A DNA stretch of 64,000 bases from positions 1 to 64,000 of the forward strand of contig JBEKIG010000005.1 of the NCBI GenBank assembly GCA_050011875.1, written 5' to 3'. This document shows positions 3,312 through 55,925 of the stretch, one piece after another; the stretch's first letter is position 1; each line of letters starts with the position of its first letter. The notes beneath the pieces are model-generated. The model was not told the DNA's origin, ran no database searches, and saw only the letters and a program-made list of their open reading frames with translations. The stretch is from Nitrososphaeria archaeon. Its GTDB lineage: Archaea > Thermoproteota > Nitrososphaeria > JACIWG01. The position numbers and the translations under genes were made by a program.

Positions 3312-3635
3312 CTCTGGGGCTTTGTCAATATGTTGTGTCCCAGATGGCCGTCTGCGTCAACGCCTGCCATCAACGTTAGTCTTCTACCATCATCATCAAT
3401 CATCACCCATCAATCAGCGTTGATCATCCGCCATCATTTGGGCAATTGCCATATTTGACAATAGGGTACCCTATTTCCAGAAAAACCCCTGCTAAATGCC
3501 CCAGAGCAATATAGAAATAGAAAAATAGCATTGTACATGTGCGGATATTTTTTGGGTATTAGCCTTTTTTTGGACATCAGCTTTTTTGTCAAACATTATT
3601 ATAAAATGTTTTTATATAACAATAACGTTATTAAA
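3312..3635. repeat. Non-coding element with nested inverted repeats, CATCA array, 16-bp palindrome and an ATAAC/AAYGTT block
   Basis: ctctggggc 3312 / gccccagag 3498; aatagggtaccctatt 3460-3475; segments homologous to 42369-42396, 9249-9265 and 9308-9336. Confidence 0.75.
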
Positions 3636-11083: not shown

Positions 11084-12152
11084 ATGAAGAGTATGAGAAT
11101 AAAGTTTGCAAGGTTCTTTCTTGTGTCGTTGACTGTTTTGCTGTGTTTGTCTTTGCTACCTTTTGCAGGGGCAACCGACGATTGGACGATGTTTCGCCAT
11201 GACGCTGCGCATTCTGGATACTCTACCTCAAGTTCTTCTGGTGGTGTTAAACTTTGGAGCTTCCCTACTGGAGACCAGGTGGAATCTTCTCCTGCTGTTG
11301 CTGGAGGGGTCGTTTACGTCGGCTCATATGACCACAATGTTTACGCTTTGAACGCTTCTACTGGTGCTAAAATCTGGAGCTACACTACTGGAGACTGGGT
11401 GACTTCTTCTCCTGCTGTTGTTGGAGGTGTCGTTTACGTCGGCTCATATGACAACAATACTTACGCACTGAATGCTTCTAGTGGTGTTAAGCTTTGGAGT
11501 TTCACTACTGGAGGCTGGGTGTTTTCTTCTCCTGCTGTTGTTGGGGGTGTCGTTTACGTTGGCTCAGAGGATGGTAATGTTTATGCTTTGAACGCTCTCA
11601 TATGGCAATAATGTTTACGCTTTGAACGCTGCTAGTGGTGCTAAAATCTGGAGCTACACTACTGGAGACTCTGTTTATTCTTCTCCTGCTGTTGTTGGAG
11701 GTGTCGTTTACGTCGGCTCAGCTGACAACAAAACTTATGCCTTGAACGCTGCTACTGGTGCTGAAATCTGGAGCTTCCATACTAAAGGCGCTGTTTATTC
11801 TTCTCCTGCTGTTGTTGGGGGTGTCGTTTACGTTGGCTCAGAGGATGGTAATGTTTATGCTTTGAACGCTGCTAGTGGTGTTAAGCTTTGGAGCTTCCCT
11901 ACTGGAGACCAGGTGGAATCTTCTCCTGCTGTTGTCGGAGGCGTCGTTTACGTTGGCTCAGCTGACGGCAAGGTTTATTCTATTGGGACTCACACAACAA
12001 CAACCGGGACTAAGACTGTTACCTCTATTCCTCAAGCAGTCATGGATCTGTTTCTACAGTTGCTTTGGATACCCCTGCTGATAATCGTAGCACTGTTGGC
12101 AGTTGCTCTATTACGTAAACGTAAAGCCTCCTCGAAGGGTAAACAAATTTGA
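11084..12152 (+). pseudogene. PQQ-like beta-propeller surface protein, frameshifted by a 34-bp partial repeat unit (11597-11630)
   Basis: WTMFRHDAAHSG, repeated SSPAVVGGVVYVGS.D..VYALNA..G...WSF.TG, C-terminal TM; the two ORFs join in frame if the 34 bp are removed. Confidence 0.85.
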
Positions 12153-23195: not shown

Positions 23196-24184
23196 CAACG
23201 TTTCTATTACAATAATAAGCTAACTCTTCGCTCCTAATCTGATAAAAAAAGTAGAAGTTTTCTAGTTGCGGTTTATGAACGAAGCTATTTCGTAGATCGC
23301 CTTAATCATATCCATGTGCGAACTCGGTGCAATCTAATTTAATTTTATTATTATCTAACCTTTTTTGTCAGCATATTTTTCACTGCTGTATTCATCATCG
23401 CGGTGACGTGAACGTTGACCTTTTCCGTGATACAACTCATATTAATCGGGATGGTGTGTCGAAGGTTAGGACTTTTTGGATGTGCAGGCTTATAGCTTAC
23501 ATCTTCCTTTCAGAGGCGGCACTTTCGATCTAGAACCCCACCAATTCTTCTGTGTAACTCGTATCGTCCGAATTATCACTGGTCTATTTCTAATGAGAGC
23601 ATTCTAACGTATATTGGTTATGTTTACTTTGTTAGGGTGTGCTGTTATTATGTGGAATTTGATAATGATTTATGGTCGTTTAAGAAAATTAGTTAGAAGA
23701 CGCGTCAAGATCCCAAATGAACAAGAAATAGAAAAGCCATATGAAAGCATCCGCTAAAGCAAATTGCCAAAAATCTGGATAACATACACTTGGAAGATAT
23801 TAATATAAACCATAAGACCTGATAGCAACGATGATAAAAAGCATAACCAATAATCCTATACGCCAACTATCTAAACTCACTCTTATCAGGTTCTGTTACC
23901 TCTTCGTCGGATTCTTGGTGGTGTTACTTTTCGTCGGAAGGAAAAACCTCCCTTTTCAATGATAGCTTAGTTTTTCTTGGTTTGGGGTTCTTTGCATAAT
24001 CAGGTTTCTTTTAAAATTTCTTCAACCGTTTTTAAAGTTATTTCCAAGTTCTGTTCATTTGTTGCTCTTGCAACTTCCTCGTAAGCCCCTTTTCACCAGA
24101 AGGTCAGGTAGAAAATGGCTGGAATAAAGCTTATAAACATAGTCGGATGAACTCGGATACTAGTTGGTTGGGGAAATTAAGGGT

Positions 24185-25540
24185 ATGAGAATAAAGTTTG
24201 AAAGATTTTTTCTTGTGTCGTTGACTGTTTTGCTGTGTTTGTCTTTGTTGCCTTCTGCTGTTGGGGCTAGCGACGATTGGGCGATGTTTCGTCATGATGC
24301 TGCGCATTCTGGATACTCTACCTCAAGTTCTTCTGGTGGTGTCCAACTTTGGAGCTTCACTACTGGAAGCAATGTGTTATCTTCTCCTGCTGTTGTTGGG
24401 GGTGTCGTTTACGTCGGCTCATTTGACGGCTATGTTTACGCTTTGAACGCTTCTAGTGGTACTCCAATCTGGGGCTTCCCTACTGGAGACCAGGTGGAAT
24501 CTTCTCCTGCTGTTGTTGGGGGCGTCGTTTATGTTGGCTCAGCTGATGACTATGTTTACGCTTTGAACGCTTCTAGTGGTACTCCAATCTGGGGCTTCCC
24601 TACTGGAGGCGCTGTGACTTCTTCTCCTGCTGTTGCTGGAGGGATCGTTTACGTCGGCTCATGGGACAACAGTACTTACGCTTTGAACGCTGCTACTGGT
24701 GCTGTAATCTGGAGCTACCCTACTGGAGGAGCTGTGGCTTCTTCTCCTGCTGTTGCTGGAGGGATCGTTTACGTCGGCTCATATGACAACAGTACTTACG
24801 CTTTGAACGCTATTACTGGTGATCCGATCTGGAGCTTCCATACTGGAAGCATTGTTTATTCTTCTCCTGCTGTTGTCGGAGGTGTCGTTTACGTCGGCTC
24901 AAATGACGGCAATGTTTACGCTTTGAACGGTACTACTGGTGCTGTAATCTGGAGCTACCCTACTGCAAGCGCTGTGGTTTCTTCTCCTGCTGTTGCTGGG
25001 GGCGTCGTTTACGTCGGCTCATGGGACAAAAATACTTACGCTTTGAATGCTTCTAGTGGTGCCAAAATCTGGAGCTTCGTCACTGGAGGTGCTGTTACTT
25101 CTTCTCCTGCTGTTGCTGGGGGCGTCGTTTACGTCGGCTCAAATGACTACAATGTTTATGCTTTGAAAGCTTCTAGTGGTGCCAAAATCTGGAGCTTCAC
25201 TACTGGAAGCTATGTGGAATCTTCTCCTACTGTTGTTGGAGGTATCGTTTACGTCGGCTCATGCGACAACAATACTTATGCTATTGGGACTCACACAAAC
25301 ACTATTACTGTAACTACGAGTGTTCCTAACACTATTACAACGATTATACAAACATCTACTATTTTCAAAACCATTACTCAACCGCCAACAACCGAGACTG
25401 AGACCGTTACCACTTCTGCTCCTGCAGTTACAGATCTGTTTATGCAGTTGCTTTGGATACCTCTGCTGGCAGTCGTAGCGCTTTTGGCGGTCGCCCTATT
25501 GCGTAAAAATAAAACCTCCCCGGAGGGTAAACAAATTTGA
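24185..25540 (+). CDS. PQQ-like 8-bladed beta-propeller surface protein
   Basis: Eight 40-aa (120-bp) units, Thr-rich linker, C-terminal TM; ATG 24185 by homology to the 11084 locus. Confidence 0.9.
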   Translation: MRIKFERFFLVSLTVLLCLSLLPSAVGASDDWAMFRHDAAHSGYSTSSSSGGVQLWSFTTGSNVLSSPAVVGGVVYVGSFDGYVYALNASSGTPIWGFPTGDQVESSPAVVGGVVYVGSADDYVYALNASSGTPIWGFPTGGAVTSSPAVAGGIVYVGSWDNSTYALNAATGAVIWSYPTGGAVASSPAVAGGIVYVGSYDNSTYALNAITGDPIWSFHTGSIVYSSPAVVGGVVYVGSNDGNVYALNGTTGAVIWSYPTASAVVSSPAVAGGVVYVGSWDKNTYALNASSGAKIWSFVTGGAVTSSPAVAGGVVYVGSNDYNVYALKASSGAKIWSFTTGSYVESSPTVVGGIVYVGSCDNNTYAIGTHTNTITVTTSVPNTITTIIQTSTIFKTITQPPTTETETVTTSAPAVTDLFMQLLWIPLLAVVALLAVALLRKNKTSPEGKQI

Positions 25541-40374: not shown

Positions 40375-40725
40375 TTACCTGTGGCTATGTCGTTCCGCTC
40401 CCTTTTTGCCTCGGTTGATCACTAGGATGCTGGTGAAGCACACCACCAACGCTGTGAAAACAATTATCGGCAGAAGTGTGACGTTAACGCTACTCACTTT
40501 AGGTGGTGTAGACGTTGAGGTTGTAGATGCTATTGTAAGCGGGGGAACATAGACACCTCCACCAGACGGAGCTGAAGAAGTTGAAGTTGTTGTGGCTGTA
40601 GTCGTTGAGGTAGTTGTTGTCGGAACAGTTGTAGTCGTGGTTGAAGTAGTTGTGGATGAAGGGGTTGGAGTTGAGCTGTAAACGTAGGGCAGAACCATCT
40701 TGTCGAGTTTTGGCGTCTCCATCAT
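40375..40725 (-). pseudogene. C-terminal fragment of a Thr-rich anchored surface protein
   Basis: Thr linker + TM + basic tail, no signal peptide. Confidence 0.55.
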
Positions 40726-40829
40726 CCGTGGAGTTGCGTCTCTGGGGGTATCAACGTATGAGGATTTCTACGAATCATGACCAGAAATGTTTGCTCAAGT
40801 CTCTTTCTGATGCCCTGCACTCTTCTTCA

Positions 40830-41339
40830 TACCTATTCGGAAGCTTAAGCGTGTGGAATCTAATAATCAGCCAAGGAAGGACAGAGGTCTACATGAAACT
40901 AAATCTTATATCTGTAGCATTAGGTCTTCCCCTAGGCTTAGTATTGATTCCTAGGCTTGGAATAATCGGCTTAGTCGTAACAGCGCTCATAGACGGAATA
41001 CCAAGCCTGATCGCGATGCTCTGGTACGTTGGAAGGCATTATGCAGCAACAGTAGACTGGGTGTCTTCAACAAAAATACTTTCAGCCTCCACAATCTCCG
41101 CCCTAGCCGCATACCTCATCTTATCCCAGCTGTCTCTTCCAAGCTGGATGGAACTTATCATCGGAGCCACAGTCTTTCTAACAGCATACATAACAGTAGC
41201 CTCACTCATAGGAGCAGTAAACAGGACAGACATCGAAAACATAAAAGAGATGCTGAAAGAACTTGGCCCATTATCAAAGTTGCTCAGCCCACCATTAAAC
41301 CTCATCGAAAAACGGATGCTGAAAATCCATAAGACTTGA
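40830..41339 (+). pseudogene. Polysaccharide flippase C-terminal fragment
   Basis: LIISQGRT...LIPRLGIIGL; N-terminal part missing. Confidence 0.7.
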
Positions 41340-41477
41340 CACAAAGCGCGCACGCAGCCCCACAAAGCACAGAAACTAAGCTTCTTTATTATGGCGTTGG
41401 TTATGGCAAATCAAAGGGCACCTTCATTATCCCCATTTCTGACATTTTCACCCCAACCCCTTAAAGACCGTTAAAGA

Positions 41478-41950
41478 ACTCGTAACTCGTAAATTTACGC
41501 GCACATATCAGTTTAACTGGGAAAAGAGGGAAACAAGCGTAAAATAAAGGTAAGTGCCTTAAACTGCTTCATGCAATTACGGAAAGCTTGGCGTAATTTA
41601 CGCCATTTACGACACTTTACGACAGCGTAAAAAGTTTACGTGTTTTACGTAATTACGGCATTTTACGCAGCGTAAAAAAAAGTTTTACGACATTTTACGA
41701 TCTTTACGACGATTTTACGGGGCGTAAAATATGGGTTTACGATGTTCTATGTGCGCGTAAAAGTCATTTTACGGCGACGTAAAAAAAAGTTTACGATGAT
41801 TTTACGACATTTTACGGCGACGTAAAAAAAAGTTTACGATGATTTTACGAGGTCGTAAAGGCTCTTACGGGAATTTACGGGACGTAAAAGACTGGGTTAC
41901 GGTATTTTGTATGCTCGTAAAAATCATTTTACGGGCCAGTTTACGGGAAA
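41478..41950. repeat. Dense helically phased TTACG/CGTAA array with a perfect 43-bp tandem duplication
   Basis: About 25 TTACG and about 14 CGTAA by hand count; 41765-41807 equals 41808-41850. Confidence 0.95.
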
Positions 41951-42280
41951 TTTTATGGTCGATAAAAAAAGTTTATAGGATTTTATGGGACTATAGGCTT
42001 TAGGTTATAAAGGCTCTGATTTAACTAAACCTATTAGATGAGCCTTACTTTTTTTTGATTATTTATCTTAAACTTATAATCTTCTGAACTGCTCCCTAGT
42101 CGAGCCTCTATATCTTTTTGTTTATCCCGACAAGTTGACAGAATCCTATAAACTATAAAATAAAGGCGCTTAAGAGTTTAGCTGGGAACAGAGGGTAAAT
42201 AGGGGAAAATATAGGAAACTGTTAAGAACGCTTCATGGGGTTAAGCACTTTAATAAGGGAATAAAAAAGGTATGCACATG

Positions 42281-42396
42281 TCATCATCAGTCATCATCAA
42301 CGGTCATCATCAGCCATCAACACCCGTCATCAGCCATCATCAGCCATCATCAGCCATCATCAGCCATCATCAGCGTTCATCGTTCGTCATCATTTG
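42281..42396 (+). repeat. 10-bp tandem array CAGCCATCAT
   Basis: Four perfect copies 42331-42370 flanked by degenerate copies. Confidence 0.95.
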
Positions 42397-42461
42397 ACCA
42401 GTTGACGTGGTTGACGCCAAACTTATATTCTACTCTAATGATATGGTATCATTGGCAGAAG

Positions 42462-43991
42462 ATGGAAACTGTTGAAAATATAGTCAGGAAGCTTCTTGAT
42501 CTTGCCAAGAAGAAGCCGCTTGGGCCTGAAGAGCTAGAGGAAGCGAAAGAATGCATGAGGATCCTTCGGCGAAATGGTTTTACAAGCTACGAAATATCCG
42601 AATTAAGTGGTCACGCTTGGGACGCGTCGACGGTGAGAAATTATGTGGTCGGCGTCAAGGTTGTGGACTCTAAGGCCAGAGCTAGGGTAATCGGCCTGTT
42701 CGTCAAAACGATGGAGGAAGATCTCTACCTTGACGAAGTGGATGGGGCCCTTTCCATAAAGTCATCTTTGGACCGAGAGGGAGCTAACATAGAAGACTTC
42801 GCCGGTCTACTGAAGTTAGCGAAAGGTTCGAAGGTCAGCTCAGGCGAGCTGGTAAAGATGTACAATGATTTAAAAGCTTCAAACCTCAACGTTGACCAGC
42901 TAAAACAGGTACTGGAATATAAACTGGGCTTTGAATCATCCAAACTGACATTGGACAACCTAAAGAAAATACGGGACCTGTTGATAAAATTTGGTAGGTT
43001 TAACGATGTCGTAGAAGCCATAACGGCCTACGTCGATCTCAAAGCGCTTAAACAGGAAGTTGAAGACATAAGCCTGGAAAAAACTTCTCGAGAATCAGAA
43101 GTTAAAATGTTAACTAAAGAAATCCTTATTCTTAATAACAAGAAAGAAGAGCTTAAGGCCCCATTTAGCAGATTGGAGCATCTAAGAGGAATAGGCTTTA
43201 ATGATGCAACTCTAGTTGGATTAGCTAAAGCCTGTGATAAGCTAGGTGGTGTAGATGCTGTCCTGAAGGCGGTTGACAGCTTCTCTGACCAGAGGGTGAT
43301 AGAGGCAAGAACCTCTGAACTAGAACGTGTCATGGAAAACCTGGAAATCAAGATAAAGAGATTGGATGTGGAAAACTCTCAGATAATTGAAGGCGTGAGA
43401 ACGTGCAGGGAGCTGATCTTCACCCATGGGTTCAATACAGGTGACATCGTAGGTGTGATGACAGCTGCCAAGAGGTATGGTAACTCAATAGATGTGCTAA
43501 GGGCGGTTGAAGACTATGGCAAGCTTAAGGCCATCCAAGATAAGGTCAACGAACTAGAGGGCTTAAAAGGAGGACTTGAGAAAGAGATAGTACAGCAGAA
43601 GGAAGAAACTAAAGACCTACGTCAAAAGGAGGAAGCCCTAACTAGGGGGGTAAGGGATTACTCCAACCAACGAGATGCTCTCAGGAAAAACGCGGATAAA
43701 TTTGATGAAGAGCTTAGAGAGGCAAAGGTGTTCTTGGCTCTAAGAAGGTACCCTTCGGAGCTGAAGATAGACAGCCTGCAATATTTGGCTCAGGCGATCA
43801 GAAGCTTGGCCACAAACGCTAAGAGCCTTGGAATAAACCAGACGTTCACGCTTAAGGATATCGTTGAGCCAAAACACAAAATCATAAACTTCACGTGGAA
43901 GATAGAGCTTTCGGATGTTCTAGGCTGGGCGAACACGGCCCTGACAACGATCATCGTGAAAACATCGCTGAATCCATCAGGTGCCAGATAA
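42462..43991 (+). CDS. HTH + long coiled-coil protein
   Basis: GFTSYEISELSGHAWDASTVRNYV; heptad repeats; TATA-like cttatatt at ~42423 supports ATG 42462. Confidence 0.8.
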   Translation: METVENIVRKLLDLAKKKPLGPEELEEAKECMRILRRNGFTSYEISELSGHAWDASTVRNYVVGVKVVDSKARARVIGLFVKTMEEDLYLDEVDGALSIKSSLDREGANIEDFAGLLKLAKGSKVSSGELVKMYNDLKASNLNVDQLKQVLEYKLGFESSKLTLDNLKKIRDLLIKFGRFNDVVEAITAYVDLKALKQEVEDISLEKTSRESEVKMLTKEILILNNKKEELKAPFSRLEHLRGIGFNDATLVGLAKACDKLGGVDAVLKAVDSFSDQRVIEARTSELERVMENLEIKIKRLDVENSQIIEGVRTCRELIFTHGFNTGDIVGVMTAAKRYGNSIDVLRAVEDYGKLKAIQDKVNELEGLKGGLEKEIVQQKEETKDLRQKEEALTRGVRDYSNQRDALRKNADKFDEELREAKVFLALRRYPSELKIDSLQYLAQAIRSLATNAKSLGINQTFTLKDIVEPKHKIINFTWKIELSDVLGWANTALTTIIVKTSLNPSGAR

Positions 43992-43992
43992 C

Positions 43993-44823
43993 ATGAGCTT
44001 GGAAAAGATCGAACAGCATATAAAGGAACTTGAAGCGCTAAAATACTATAGCGGAACCAAGCAGGAAAGAGATGAAGCTTTGAAAAAAGTAGGCGAACTA
44101 GAGAGCGTCAAGACCGAACTAGAGAAAAGGATAGCCGACCTTGAGCAGATAAAGGTTACTTCAGAGGGGAAGACGATAAAGGAAGCCGAAGAAGCCTTCC
44201 TAAGGGCTGAGCAAGAGGAGATAAGCAGAAAAGCTGAAGAAAAGTCCAACGAAAAATATGAGAAATGGCGAAAGGATGAGAAACCTAAGGAGGTATTCGA
44301 TTCGTCTGTCAAAGAGCTCAAGACGATCCTGCAAAGCCTATCTGAAGCCCCATACCAAGCAATTCCTTCTAAGTTGGCACAGGCCGGATTAGATGTTGAA
44401 GTTAAGAAGGCATTAAATGTAGAAGTTCAGAAAAGGTTACATGTGGAATTCAATAAGAGAGTCGAAGCGAGGGCGCACGAAACCGCTTTAAAATGGTTCG
44501 AAAATTGGAAGAAATCTGAGTTAAATAGATGGCATAATGAAAAAATAATGCCTGAAATAGCAAGATTGGAAACAGTCTTCAGCTCAAACATCATGACCGT
44601 ATTGAGGGACACCGACTTCGAAATAACCTGTAACAAATGTGACCAAATATCTCAGATAAAATTTACAGGTCAAATGATTTCAAACCTAATCACAAAAGGG
44701 AAATCCAATTTGCCATGCATCAACCCTAACTGCAACGACCCATGGACAGGCAGACATCAGATTCAGATCAACCTCGCAGATCTCATAGATTCCATGATAA
44801 CGCTCAAGAGTGGATATCCATAA
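43993..44823 (+). CDS. Coiled-coil protein with C-terminal Zn finger
   Basis: Coupled to the upstream gene; CNKC...CINPNC...H. Confidence 0.8.
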   Translation: MSLEKIEQHIKELEALKYYSGTKQERDEALKKVGELESVKTELEKRIADLEQIKVTSEGKTIKEAEEAFLRAEQEEISRKAEEKSNEKYEKWRKDEKPKEVFDSSVKELKTILQSLSEAPYQAIPSKLAQAGLDVEVKKALNVEVQKRLHVEFNKRVEARAHETALKWFENWKKSELNRWHNEKIMPEIARLETVFSSNIMTVLRDTDFEITCNKCDQISQIKFTGQMISNLITKGKSNLPCINPNCNDPWTGRHQIQINLADLIDSMITLKSGYP

Positions 44824-54563: not shown

Positions 54564-55925
54564 TTGGAGAAGAAATCAAGCCTAATTTTCGGATTGTTTA
54601 TTATAGCTGCAATTCTATGTGCGTTTTCAGCCAACGCTTTAGTTACACCTTGGACGATGTTCCGCCACGACGCTGCGCATACTGGATACTCTACCCAAAG
54701 CCCTTTTGTTGGAGGCGTCGTTTATTTCGGCTCAGATGACCAAAAAGTTTATGCTACTAGTGCTTTTATCTGGAGTTTCCCTACTGGAGGTGTTGTGGAA
54801 TCTTCTCCTGCTGTTGTTGGGGGTGTCGTTTACGTCGGCTCATTTGACGGCAATGTTTATGCTTTGAATGCTTCTAGTGGTGCTAAAATCTGGAACTTCA
54901 CTACTGGAGGCGCTGTGGATTCTTCTCCTGCTGTTGTTGGGGGTGTCGTTTACGTTGGCTCATATGACAAAAATGTTTATGCTTTGAACGCTTCTACTGG
55001 TGTTAAACTTTGGAGCTTTCCTACTGGAAACATTGTGTATTCTTCTCCTGCTGTTGCTGGAGGGGTTGTTTACGTTGGCTCATATGACAAAAATGTTTAC
55101 GCTTTGAATGCTTCTACTGGTGCTTTTATCTGGAGTTTCCCTACTGGAAACATTGTGTATTCTTCTCCTGCCGTTGTTGGGGGTGTCGTTTACGTTGGCT
55201 CAGGTGACAATGTTTATGCTTTGAACGCTTCTACTGGTGCTTTTATCTGGAGTTTCCCTACTGGAGACGGTGTGTATTCTTCTCCTGCTGTCGCTGGAGG
55301 GGTCGTTTACGTCGGCTCAGATGACCACAATGTTTACGCTTTAAACGCTTCTAGTGGTTCTGAAATCTGGAGCTTCCCTACTGAAAGCGCTGTGGAATCT
55401 TCTCCTGCTGTCGCTTTAGGCGTCGTTTACGTCGGCTCATATGACTACAATGTTTATGCTTTGAACGCTTCTAATGGCGCTAAGCTTTGGAGCTTTCCTA
55501 CTGGAAGCTATGTGGAATCTTCTCCTGCTGTCGCTGGAGGGGTCGTTTACGTCGGCTCAGATGACCACAATGTTTATGCTTTGAACGCTTCTAATGGTGC
55601 TAAGCTTTGGAACTTCACTACTGGAAGCGCTGTAGAATCTTCCCCTGCTGTTATTGCGACTTCTACTACTACTACTACGACTACTACTTCTACTACTAGC
55701 ACCACTACTTCTACTACTACTACGACTACTTCTACTACTACTAGCACCACTACTTCTACTACTACTACGACTACTTCTACTACTACTAGCACAACTACTT
55801 CTGTACCAGTTGGTGGAGTGTTGACGTCAGGTGGTATAATTGGTATGGAGGGGTTGCTGTTGGCAGCTTTGGTCGCAGCATTCTGTGCAGCAACGGTAAT
55901 TGTGGCTAGGAAACTTAAGAAATAA
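54564..55925 (+). CDS. PQQ-like beta-propeller surface protein with Thr linker and PVGG-TM tail
   Basis: 120-bp units; poly-Thr; VPVGG + TM + RKLKK. Confidence 0.9.
   Translation: MEKKSSLIFGLFIIAAILCAFSANALVTPWTMFRHDAAHTGYSTQSPFVGGVVYFGSDDQKVYATSAFIWSFPTGGVVESSPAVVGGVVYVGSFDGNVYALNASSGAKIWNFTTGGAVDSSPAVVGGVVYVGSYDKNVYALNASTGVKLWSFPTGNIVYSSPAVAGGVVYVGSYDKNVYALNASTGAFIWSFPTGNIVYSSPAVVGGVVYVGSGDNVYALNASTGAFIWSFPTGDGVYSSPAVAGGVVYVGSDDHNVYALNASSGSEIWSFPTESAVESSPAVALGVVYVGSYDYNVYALNASNGAKLWSFPTGSYVESSPAVAGGVVYVGSDDHNVYALNASNGAKLWNFTTGSAVESSPAVIATSTTTTTTTTSTTSTTTSTTTTTTSTTTSTTTSTTTTTTSTTTSTTTSVPVGGVLTSGGIIGMEGLLLAALVAAFCAATVIVARKLKK

Follow-up and report, generated by a model that had tools for sequence, protein, structure and literature searches.

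Plasmid centromeres of the parC type are built from repeats spaced by 11 bp in R1 (about one helical turn) and by 20 bp in pSK41 (about two turns). Plasmid iterons and the pSM19035 omega heptad operators consist of short direct and inverted words read by small dimeric repressors, with a copy number that varies between promoters, and the archaeal SegB and AspA systems use a few palindromic sites and are not known to use long phased arrays. In the passages of PMC5016525 that treat parC, ParR binds the repeats cooperatively to form a superhelical nucleoprotein complex that also represses the promoter. DUF536 is reported in pSK1 Par and RocS (PMC11500499, the sections on these proteins), and SegB and AspA are described as site-specific binders acting beside their own operon (PMC8682754 and PMC12139799). 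Both systems include a ParA-type ATPase, SegA or ParA. The Beggiatoaceae TAACTGA heptamers form many intergenic sets of short direct repeats and are presumably regulatory (PMC4679880). Here, we analyze an intergenic spacer (41.43–42.46 kb) and the two-gene operon downstream of it, genes A and B, in the first 64 kb (hereafter the window) of contig JBEKIG010000005.1, called C5 below (134.7 kb), from a genome of the class Nitrososphaeria (2.64 Mb, 119 contigs, 97% complete). The organism is present in peat metagenomes.

With a probability of about one in two, we read this spacer as two tandem modules, each a head followed by an array of short words, in which the arrays would be DNA-level docking tracks for specific binders. 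What we observe is the anatomy of these modules, their copy number, their phasing, the contrast between cores and spacers, the matching of words between heads and arrays, and the association of arrays with paralogs of gene A. Each module would comprise a conserved ~115-nt head and then a 6–10-bp word private to that module, placed once per helical turn and separated by unconstrained spacers. Sequence-specific DNA-binding proteins would dock cooperatively on one face of such an array and may act as on iterons, parC, or operators, through a nucleoprotein filament over or beside a promoter. The array in module 2, made of CATCA-type words and three TTGAC, is probably tied to the A/B operon, where protein A, partnered by the zinc-ribbon protein B, would use it as its cognate operator or assembly site; bound there, A may regulate its own gene and possibly bridge DNA to the remaining seven CATCA arrays of the chromosome. 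The TTACG array in module 1 would be read by another factor than the array of the A/B pair, and this factor may in addition recognize the TTACG words of which the TATA-like palindrome in the same module is made.

Like parC/ParR of R1 and pSK41, the locus has short, direct, phased repeats upstream of an operon, and one subtype of module (type II) has word copies on both sides of its promoter-like head. Unlike parC/ParR, it has no match to a ribbon-helix-helix ParR or to ParM in A, B, or the next open reading frame (ORF) (Pfam, NCBIfam, and PHROG), and the N-terminus of A is all-helical; the setting here is chromosomal, with dozens of arrays of different words, a common head, and many modules that lack an adjacent operon. 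A resembles pSK1 Par and RocS, as these are presented in the relevant sections of PMC11500499, in having a helix-turn-helix (HTH) region followed by a coiled coil and in being encoded beside repeats. In contrast to those proteins, A has no detected DUF536, is twice as long, combines three long helices with small helical modules, has a zinc-ribbon partner, and gave no match in sequence or fold. Compared with iterons and omega heptads, the words here are not contiguous but one turn apart with free spacers, reach about 35–39 copies, and follow a conserved head. Unlike the SegB and AspA systems, there is no AAA_31 match on contig C5. Unlike the TAACTGA sets as described in PMC4679880, the modules each have their own word, a conserved head, and helical phasing.

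The region from 41340 to 42461 holds no ORF of at least 60 aa. Homology to the flank in the sister genome, that of the only other species of the genus, ends at ~41433, roughly 30 nt before the head of module 1, a type II head at 41466–41592 on the forward strand (nhmmer 1.1e-19; covariance model [CM] match at 41480–41586, 4e-17) that aligns with 18 other heads. It carries two word copies and a TATA-like 12-bp palindrome (41488–41499), followed by the conserved ~70-nt block that ends in CTTCATG. The TTACG array (41577–41945, forward strand) has a mean period of 10.7 bp, a sharp TTTACG core and random spacers, and continues as a degenerate TTTATG/TTTATAG tail to about 42010. On both strands, the window contains 162 TTACG compared with 104 ± 11 in shuffles, none of which reached 162 (0/100). 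Thirty-nine of these lie in 41481–41945 (25 forward, 14 reverse) versus 123 in the remaining 63.5 kb, and 41575–41960 holds 24 forward and 11 reverse copies. Outside the array, TTACG recurs at a regular 27/93-nt spacing, which is caused by 120-bp repeats of three paralogous ORFs. These ORFs (11084–12152, 24164–25540, and 54564–55925) encode 40-aa tandem repeats that look like PQQ/BamB-like beta-propeller blades (TRF; Pfam for the second ORF only).

Successive forward-strand TTACG are spaced by 21, 9, 10, 19, 9, 8, 10, 22, 10, 9, 11, 22, 32, 22, 11, 10, 22, 11, 20, 10, 22, 32, and 12 bp. Their starts give a best period of 10.7 bp with a power of 12.1, whereas random positions reach 8.3 at the 99th percentile. 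TTACG and CGTAA form eight inverted pairs (TTACG-N3-7-CGTAA) and 13 everted pairs, and segmental duplications of 43 and 160 bp lie within the array. The shorter is a perfect tandem duplication of four helical turns at 41765–41850 (41765–41807 and 41808–41850, forward strand). An earlier reading made from the letters alone (the sequence-only reading) had described about 25 TTACG in a non-coding array at helical-turn spacing, inverted CGTAA copies, palindromes at 41488–41499 and 41589–41605, and a perfect 43-bp duplication, and all of these were recovered here.

The same reading had named an assembly artefact among the outcomes that would undo it. The array was compared with read contigs (Logan) from two studies, X1, possibly the source of the assembly, and X2, which is independent. 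There were no differences over 40600–41794 and 41821–42154. Contig breaks were confined to the 43-bp duplication, where 43-mer depth was about double (15.9 versus 7.7), and an X2 record (41778–41837) bridges its junction. Contig joints from 41481 to 42211/42283 and from 42273 to 42335/42345 are cross-links to other genomic head copies, not deletions. Because the contigs match without differences and an independent run spans the duplication junction, the array is genuine and not an artefact of assembly.

The helical period is common to arrays with different words. Besides the TTACG array, best periods were 10.8 bp for TAAAG on C6 (power 18.8), 10.9 bp for TAAAG on C11 (27.8), 10.7 bp for a TTATA array (12.6), 10.6 bp for a TTTAAAG array (10.1), and 10.0 bp for TCAAC on C18 (13.0). 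All six exceed the 99th percentile of random positions, and individual word spacings jitter between 9 and 12. When type II arrays were aligned on their word, each core position carried 2 bits, compared with 0.0–0.4 bits at most spacer positions. Judged by sequence pattern, exact cores with free spacers at the period of the helix is the anatomy of protein-binding site arrays; the common period across words, together with sharp cores and random spacers, therefore points to proteins on one DNA face. Plain tandem duplication is disfavored because it would copy the spacers too. By analogy, a period slightly over 10.5 bp suggests that successive sites may wind slowly round the axis, as in superhelical partition complexes.

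Some of these properties would also be expected of promoter-like or curved-DNA chromatin elements, in which type II arrays would be phased, degenerate B-recognition element (BRE)/TATA words (TTTAnnG) that titrate TBP and TFB or position chromatin proteins through curvature. A/T tracts phased at about one turn bend DNA, and the type II words TTTACG, TTTATAG, TTTAAAG, and ATAAAG are T/A-tract words in one orientation. The promoter-enriched hexamers AAGTTT, GTTTAA, TTAAAT, and CTTAAA recur in the arrays, with AAAAAGTTTACG present three times. We nevertheless consider this account rather improbable: the CG of TTTACG is invariant (2 bits), which neither a TATA role nor a curvature role would need, the CATCA, GAACA, CTGCACC, and ATTATC arrays are not A/T tracts, and the genome encodes only two full TBPs, one half-TBP, and two TFBs, with no paralog expansion to serve many word variants. 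The half-TBP is a single-repeat TBP-like ORF of 115 aa at C4:205322–205564, found besides the two full TBP and two TFB genes.

When the spacer was searched against its own genome, part of it proved to be multi-copy, and the copies set side by side show the conserved ~115-nt head. A profile search found 19 heads, often clustered in tandem along a single strand, with groups of four on C6, three on C11, and two on each of C4, C14, and the window. Both head subtypes have a TATA-like word or palindrome ~27–30 nt before an invariant core, the conserved ~70-nt block, and the CTTCATG end. An array, defined as a top 5-mer present at least seven times in 290 nt, lies directly downstream of 13/19 heads, and its word varies by module: TTTACG, CATCATCAGC, (C)ATAAAG, TTTAAAG, TTTATAGG, TTTAAGTA, GGGTATAACGA, GGAATAGG, and TGAACA. 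Flanking genes are mostly unrelated between loci and include those for an aminotransferase, thermopsin, a methyltransferase, and surface proteins. Across 41 genomes, the head model matched two, namely this one (19 heads) and the sister species (4 heads); the remaining 39, of which 8 are from the same family and 31 from elsewhere in the class, gave no match. The head pattern had no matches in viral contigs and yielded no independent new instance among 13 loci in metagenome contigs, seven of which hold 12 head-model matches that duplicate copies of this genome (same bit scores), one a weak partial match, and five none. A chromosomal, multi-copy family that joins one conserved head to many phased words is, to our knowledge, apparently undescribed; literature searches, with supplementary files left out, found no description of it.

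The head resembles a promoter, with a transcript that may start at the conserved block; it looks promoter-like because its TATA-like word sits at the distance typical of TATA-like words in this genome. This raises the alternative that the modules are non-coding RNA genes, each head being a promoter plus a conserved 5' leader and the array being transcribed to act as RNA, perhaps as a multi-hairpin sponge that soaks up an RNA-binding protein. In both head types, the TATA-like box precedes the conserved block by 27–30 nt, as in the genome-wide TATA position. About half of the modules face a convergent gene and would be stand-alone transcription units, and the words are strongly polar relative to the head (37 versus 3, 26 versus 7, and 15 versus 0). 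The TTACG array folds at -120.1 kcal/mol (z -3.39 versus shuffles), but this z is a trivial outcome of inverted word copies. RNAalifold predicts 0 pairs shared by the 19 heads, Rfam gives no match at gathering score, and a period of 10.6–10.9 bp with jittered spacings is a property of the DNA helix that would be superfluous for RNA function. On balance, we regard RNA genes as unlikely.

A link between head and array fits the docking-track reading. In type II heads, the array word also forms the TATA-like palindrome of the head; for example, the palindrome at 41488–41499 is two TTACG words. Counts of the array word in its own head sum to 23 for matched pairs versus 8.9 ± 3.6 for permuted head/array pairs (P about 1e-4, a value that overstates independence and so weakens the case, as the heads are related copies). 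The window TTACG head holds its word 3 times, compared with 0.11 in other heads.

Comparison with the sister species shows how the modules change. There, the orthologous TTACG module shares the palindrome, the head subtype, and the word, but its TTTACG array measures only ~110 bp; the module lies behind another one and before a short-chain dehydrogenase (SDR) gene, not before A/B. Because this ortholog precedes a dehydrogenase gene, the TTACG module is, on comparative grounds, unlinked to the operon and an independent module. The sequence-only reading had joined the TTACG array and the operon into one centromere or origin unit, which is not supported in view of the 19 heads, often in tandem and beside unrelated genes, the SDR gene next to the sister ortholog, and the chromosomal setting. 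The two species also share another head segment (98% identity across 198 bp) without flanking synteny, and it is followed by a ~250-bp array in one species and by none in the other. In both species, orthologous A genes have ATTATC arrays upstream. A 19-kb synteny search against the sister genome gave scattered matches only and no clean filled/empty site. Thus, modules have been shuffled and arrays have grown and shrunk, with the word of a given module kept.

Such mobility could also mean that the modules are selfish or neutral repeats akin to satellites or miniature inverted-repeat transposable elements, possibly moved by IS200/IS605 insertion sequences (IS) and growing by slippage and unequal exchange without a cellular function. 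The near-identical segment that has an array in one species only is as expected of such repeats, as are the same head (91% over 246 bp) before different arrays, the 43- and 160-bp duplications, the TnpB matches (3/5 in the genome within 1.3 kb of a head), and the confinement of the family to one genus. Slippage would copy whole units, yet the cores are exact and the spacers random. Different words also share one helical period, and the word is conserved across species in orthologous modules. The IS200/IS605 ends seen in C4 leave the heads outside them, and no terminal inverted repeats or target duplications were identified in a search that was not systematic. We see purely selfish repeats as a minor possibility. 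At C4:504–4013, two head-array modules flank an IS200/IS605 element with tnpA and tnpB as well as a copy with tnpB alone.

Module 2 begins with a type I head at 42136–42253 (forward strand; nhmmer 5.8e-26; CM 2e-23). The segment 42001–42245 is 91% identical to C14:72844–73085, a locus at which a TGAACA array and a small HTH gene come after the same head. A small family of HTH-like proteins without a Pfam match (two of three scanned) is encoded at C14:73407–73808, C3:25082–25768, and C6:6369–6956; upstream of each of the three genes lies a type I head and then a TGAACA array, part of which runs into the region predicted to encode the N-terminus. In the window, the head is followed by the CATCA-type array (42279–42391, forward strand), with 14 words at a 10-bp period in a single orientation, one of eight such arrays in the genome. 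It includes nine copies of CATCATCAGC as a 10-bp array at 42282–42374. Three TTGAC (42394–42415, forward strand; starts 42394, 42402, and 42411, spaced 8 and 9 bp) then abut the promoter of gene A. TTGAC corresponds, in inverted form, to GTCAAC, which occurs as a variant of the array word in the C18 and C16 arrays. A TATA-like box lies next at 42419–42434 (forward strand), 43–28 nt upstream of the ATG at 42462; across 1032 ORFs of the genome, TATA-like words are most frequent 42 to 29 nt before the start codon, and we infer that this box is the promoter element of gene A. The earlier description of a 10-bp array and three TTGAC abutting the promoter is thus borne out.

Two other readings were set aside. 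On the minus strand of the CATCA array (42278–42398), sub-threshold matches to archaeal C/D-box sRNAs arise from TGATGA/CTGA in the reverse complement of the repeat; the best, Rfam sR5, reached 24.5 bits against a cut-off of 40, and 10/10 matches fell below the cut-off. A CRISPR array has repeats of ~25–40 nt and unique spacers of similar length, and the words in this spacer are 5–10 nt with a period of ~10.7 bp. There is also a second multi-copy element in the genome, made up of a CATCA-type 10-bp array and, after it, a conserved block of ~90 nt that contains two short palindromes. Copies lie at 3355–3520 in the window, at C5:64460–64561 just past it, and at C16:27750–27950, with unrelated neighbors that include toxin-antitoxin and chaperonin genes.

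The product of gene A (42462–43991, forward strand, 509 aa) has an HTH-like domain at its N-terminus and a small alpha/beta part at its C-terminus, with helical modules and three long coiled-coil helices between them. The TAA stop of gene A is separated by 1 nt from the ATG of gene B (43993–44823, forward strand, 276 aa), which encodes a coiled coil and a C-terminal zinc ribbon, CxxC...Cx4C, whose four cysteines are invariant in 9/9 aligned homologs. The AlphaFold2 (AF2) model of A has a mean predicted lDDT (pLDDT) of 78.7 from a 35-row alignment (a 4-row alignment gave 58). It shows an N-terminal four-helix region with an HTH-like pair (helices 42–48 and 55–62), long helices at 180–243, 264–320, and 342–429, short helical modules elsewhere, and a helical C-terminus at 483–503. 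The model helices, the cysteine pattern of B, and the 1-nt gap agree with the earlier description of an HTH and long coiled-coil gene coupled to a coiled-coil/Zn-finger gene. A prediction of the A+B complex scored 0.00 without controls and counts neither way.

Structure prediction thus recovers the HTH-like region and coiled coil of A and provides no significant fold match: Foldseek against PDB gave 0 matches at E ≤ 0.001 and only weak local similarity to the HTH domains of DnaA and Spo0J/ParB (E 1.4–1.7, probability 0.6–0.8). VIA-align wide returned coiled-coil look-alikes only (Z ≤ 6.8, residues 179–434), barely covering the N-terminal domain, and ESM Atlas returned no usable feature match, with structure rows at TM ≤ 0.26. 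A matched no Pfam, PHROG, NCBIfam, or PDB family other than coiled-coil noise; its Pfam scan gave a sub-threshold spectrin repeat only, and DUF536 was not detected. PADLOC found only coiled-coil similarity to JetC and HTH similarity of neighboring regulators. An exhaustive profile search finds 484 homologs of A at E ≤ 1e-3 and 181 at 1e-30, compared with one relative in a word-based search and one locus in a related-locus search with the 4-row alignment. B has seven relatives. Within the class, A occurs in 7/301 genomes: both of this genus, 4/39 in one other family, and 1/9 in another. This genome has four A paralogs, of which 3/4 are followed by a B homolog, as are 2/3 of the loci in the sister genome.

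The A paralogs are associated with arrays. In this genome, 4/4 have one 70–1500 nt upstream: CATCATCAGC 70 nt upstream in the window, CATCAACGAT ~1.5 kb upstream on C18, ATTATC/GATAAT ~1 kb upstream on C17 (on both C18 and C17 with a divergent winged-helix gene between), and CTGCACC nine times and then an 11-bp word four times within 370 nt on C3. In the sister genome, 2/3 have one, CATCAAC ~250 nt upstream at the first locus and CATTATCC ~800 nt upstream at the second; the third has a weak signal and an A gene split into two frames. Since strict calling yields only 21 phased arrays across the 2.64 Mb, 4/4 would be far above chance by a rough estimate with no formal test; the genome-wide count is itself approximate, as the strict caller missed the TTACG array and the first caller was noisy (104 calls). 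The HTH variants also track the words, one recognition-helix variant occurring with CATCA[AT]C (3/3 loci) and another with ATTATC (2/2). Hence, of the two predictions in the sequence-only reading, that homologs of A carry upstream arrays holds within the genus and fails outside it, and that the motif co-varies with the recognition helix is seen within the genus, where it is confounded by orthology.

Several observations weigh against the docking-track reading and its assignment of A to the CATCA array. Gene and array are co-inherited, which is the orthology confounding the match between HTH and word. At three loci, a divergent winged-helix gene (ArsR/Lrs14-like) lies between the array and A and is an alternative binder. 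Just 2/8 CATCA-type arrays adjoin an A paralog, the other six lying by toxin-antitoxin, chaperonin, and pilin-like genes. Outside the genus, homologs of A have an array within about 2 kb upstream at 0/5 loci, and phased TCAWC arrays occur in 0/5 other class genomes carrying A; the matches are confined to the genus, with 34 and 8 in its two genomes, besides plain microsatellites in 2/299 others. Type I heads before CATCA or GAACA arrays have a head-word match of 0. The TTAAGT array on C4 shows no significant phasing, nor does the window CATCA array taken alone (power 5.6 versus a 99th percentile of 7.1), in the latter case because the word overlaps itself; its 10-bp period is seen by TRF and by pattern search. 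Protein binding, the assignment of proteins to arrays, and the promoter activity of heads are all inferred.

Under the partition account put forward by the sequence-only reading, the locus would be an NTPase-less centromere module in which A, like pSK1 Par, binds arrays upstream of its own gene and segregates a replicon. The phased repeats upstream of an operon whose first product has an HTH and a coiled coil fit this account, as does the description in PMC5016525 (the passages on parC) of centromeres as tandem repeats placed ahead of the operon, in one run or divided by the promoter. The weak similarity of the A N-terminal fold to Spo0J/ParB and DnaA HTH domains is a further point for it. The context, however, is chromosomal (enolase, amino-acid permease, PfkB kinase, FMN reductase, and a glycosyltransferase/glycosylation cluster), with the caveat that the genome is metagenome-assembled. 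The genome carries four paralogs of A and at least 19 modules, and in the sister species the TTACG module has no linkage to A/B. Nor does A have DUF536, a significant Foldseek match, or arrays beside its homologs outside the genus. As the earlier reading had noted for ParA and integrase, there is no AAA_31 (ParA-type) and no tyrosine-integrase match, here on the whole of contig C5; the genome's single AAA_31 match and four integrase matches are on other contigs. The Pfam scan of the window covered 20 ORFs, comprising 19 of the 51 ORFs of at least 120 aa and one of 81 aa. The array anatomy is iteron- or centromere-like as proposed, and the partition mechanism, with its partners absent and the family dispersed, is quite improbable.

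A replication origin, with the head as an origin recognition box (ORB)-like element followed by iterons, is the least credible of the alternatives. The phased repeats are iteron-like and there are A/T-rich tracts, and the head core has a presumed likeness to origin recognition boxes. Against this, the 19 heads are dispersed or in tandem, there is no GC-skew turn at the site, and the only orc1/cdc6 match over the cut-off (Cdc6_C) lies at C10:65894–66160, on a contig with 0/19 heads.

Two features of the neighborhood may be mentioned. Immediately upstream of module 1, a truncated gene (40650–41339) encodes the C-terminal 229 aa of a ~520-aa membrane-protein family, with a full paralog at C3:29941–31509. 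Between 29000 and 36000, the window has a low-GC block (0.34–0.37) with genes for a glycosyltransferase, a NosD-like beta-helix protein, and UDP-GlcNAc 2-epimerase, which is probably a variable surface-glycan island.

A wider interpretation, which we offer as speculative and doubtful, is a genus-specific DNA "address" system. Promoter-like heads with private-word arrays would be read by A-family HTH/coiled-coil proteins, their zinc-ribbon partners, and other regulators, which would form one-face filaments and bridge distant arrays, so that chromosomal DNA may be organized, silenced, or segregated without an NTPase. Should the modules be selfish repeats instead, they would represent a novel type of archaeal repeat that grows in keeping with the helical turn of DNA. 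As docking tracks, the arrays would provide a natural set of cognate protein/site pairs and a testable handle on DNA organization and gene control in uncultured peat and soil Nitrososphaeria. They would then also give a first functional lead on the protein family of A, which has 484 members and no annotation.

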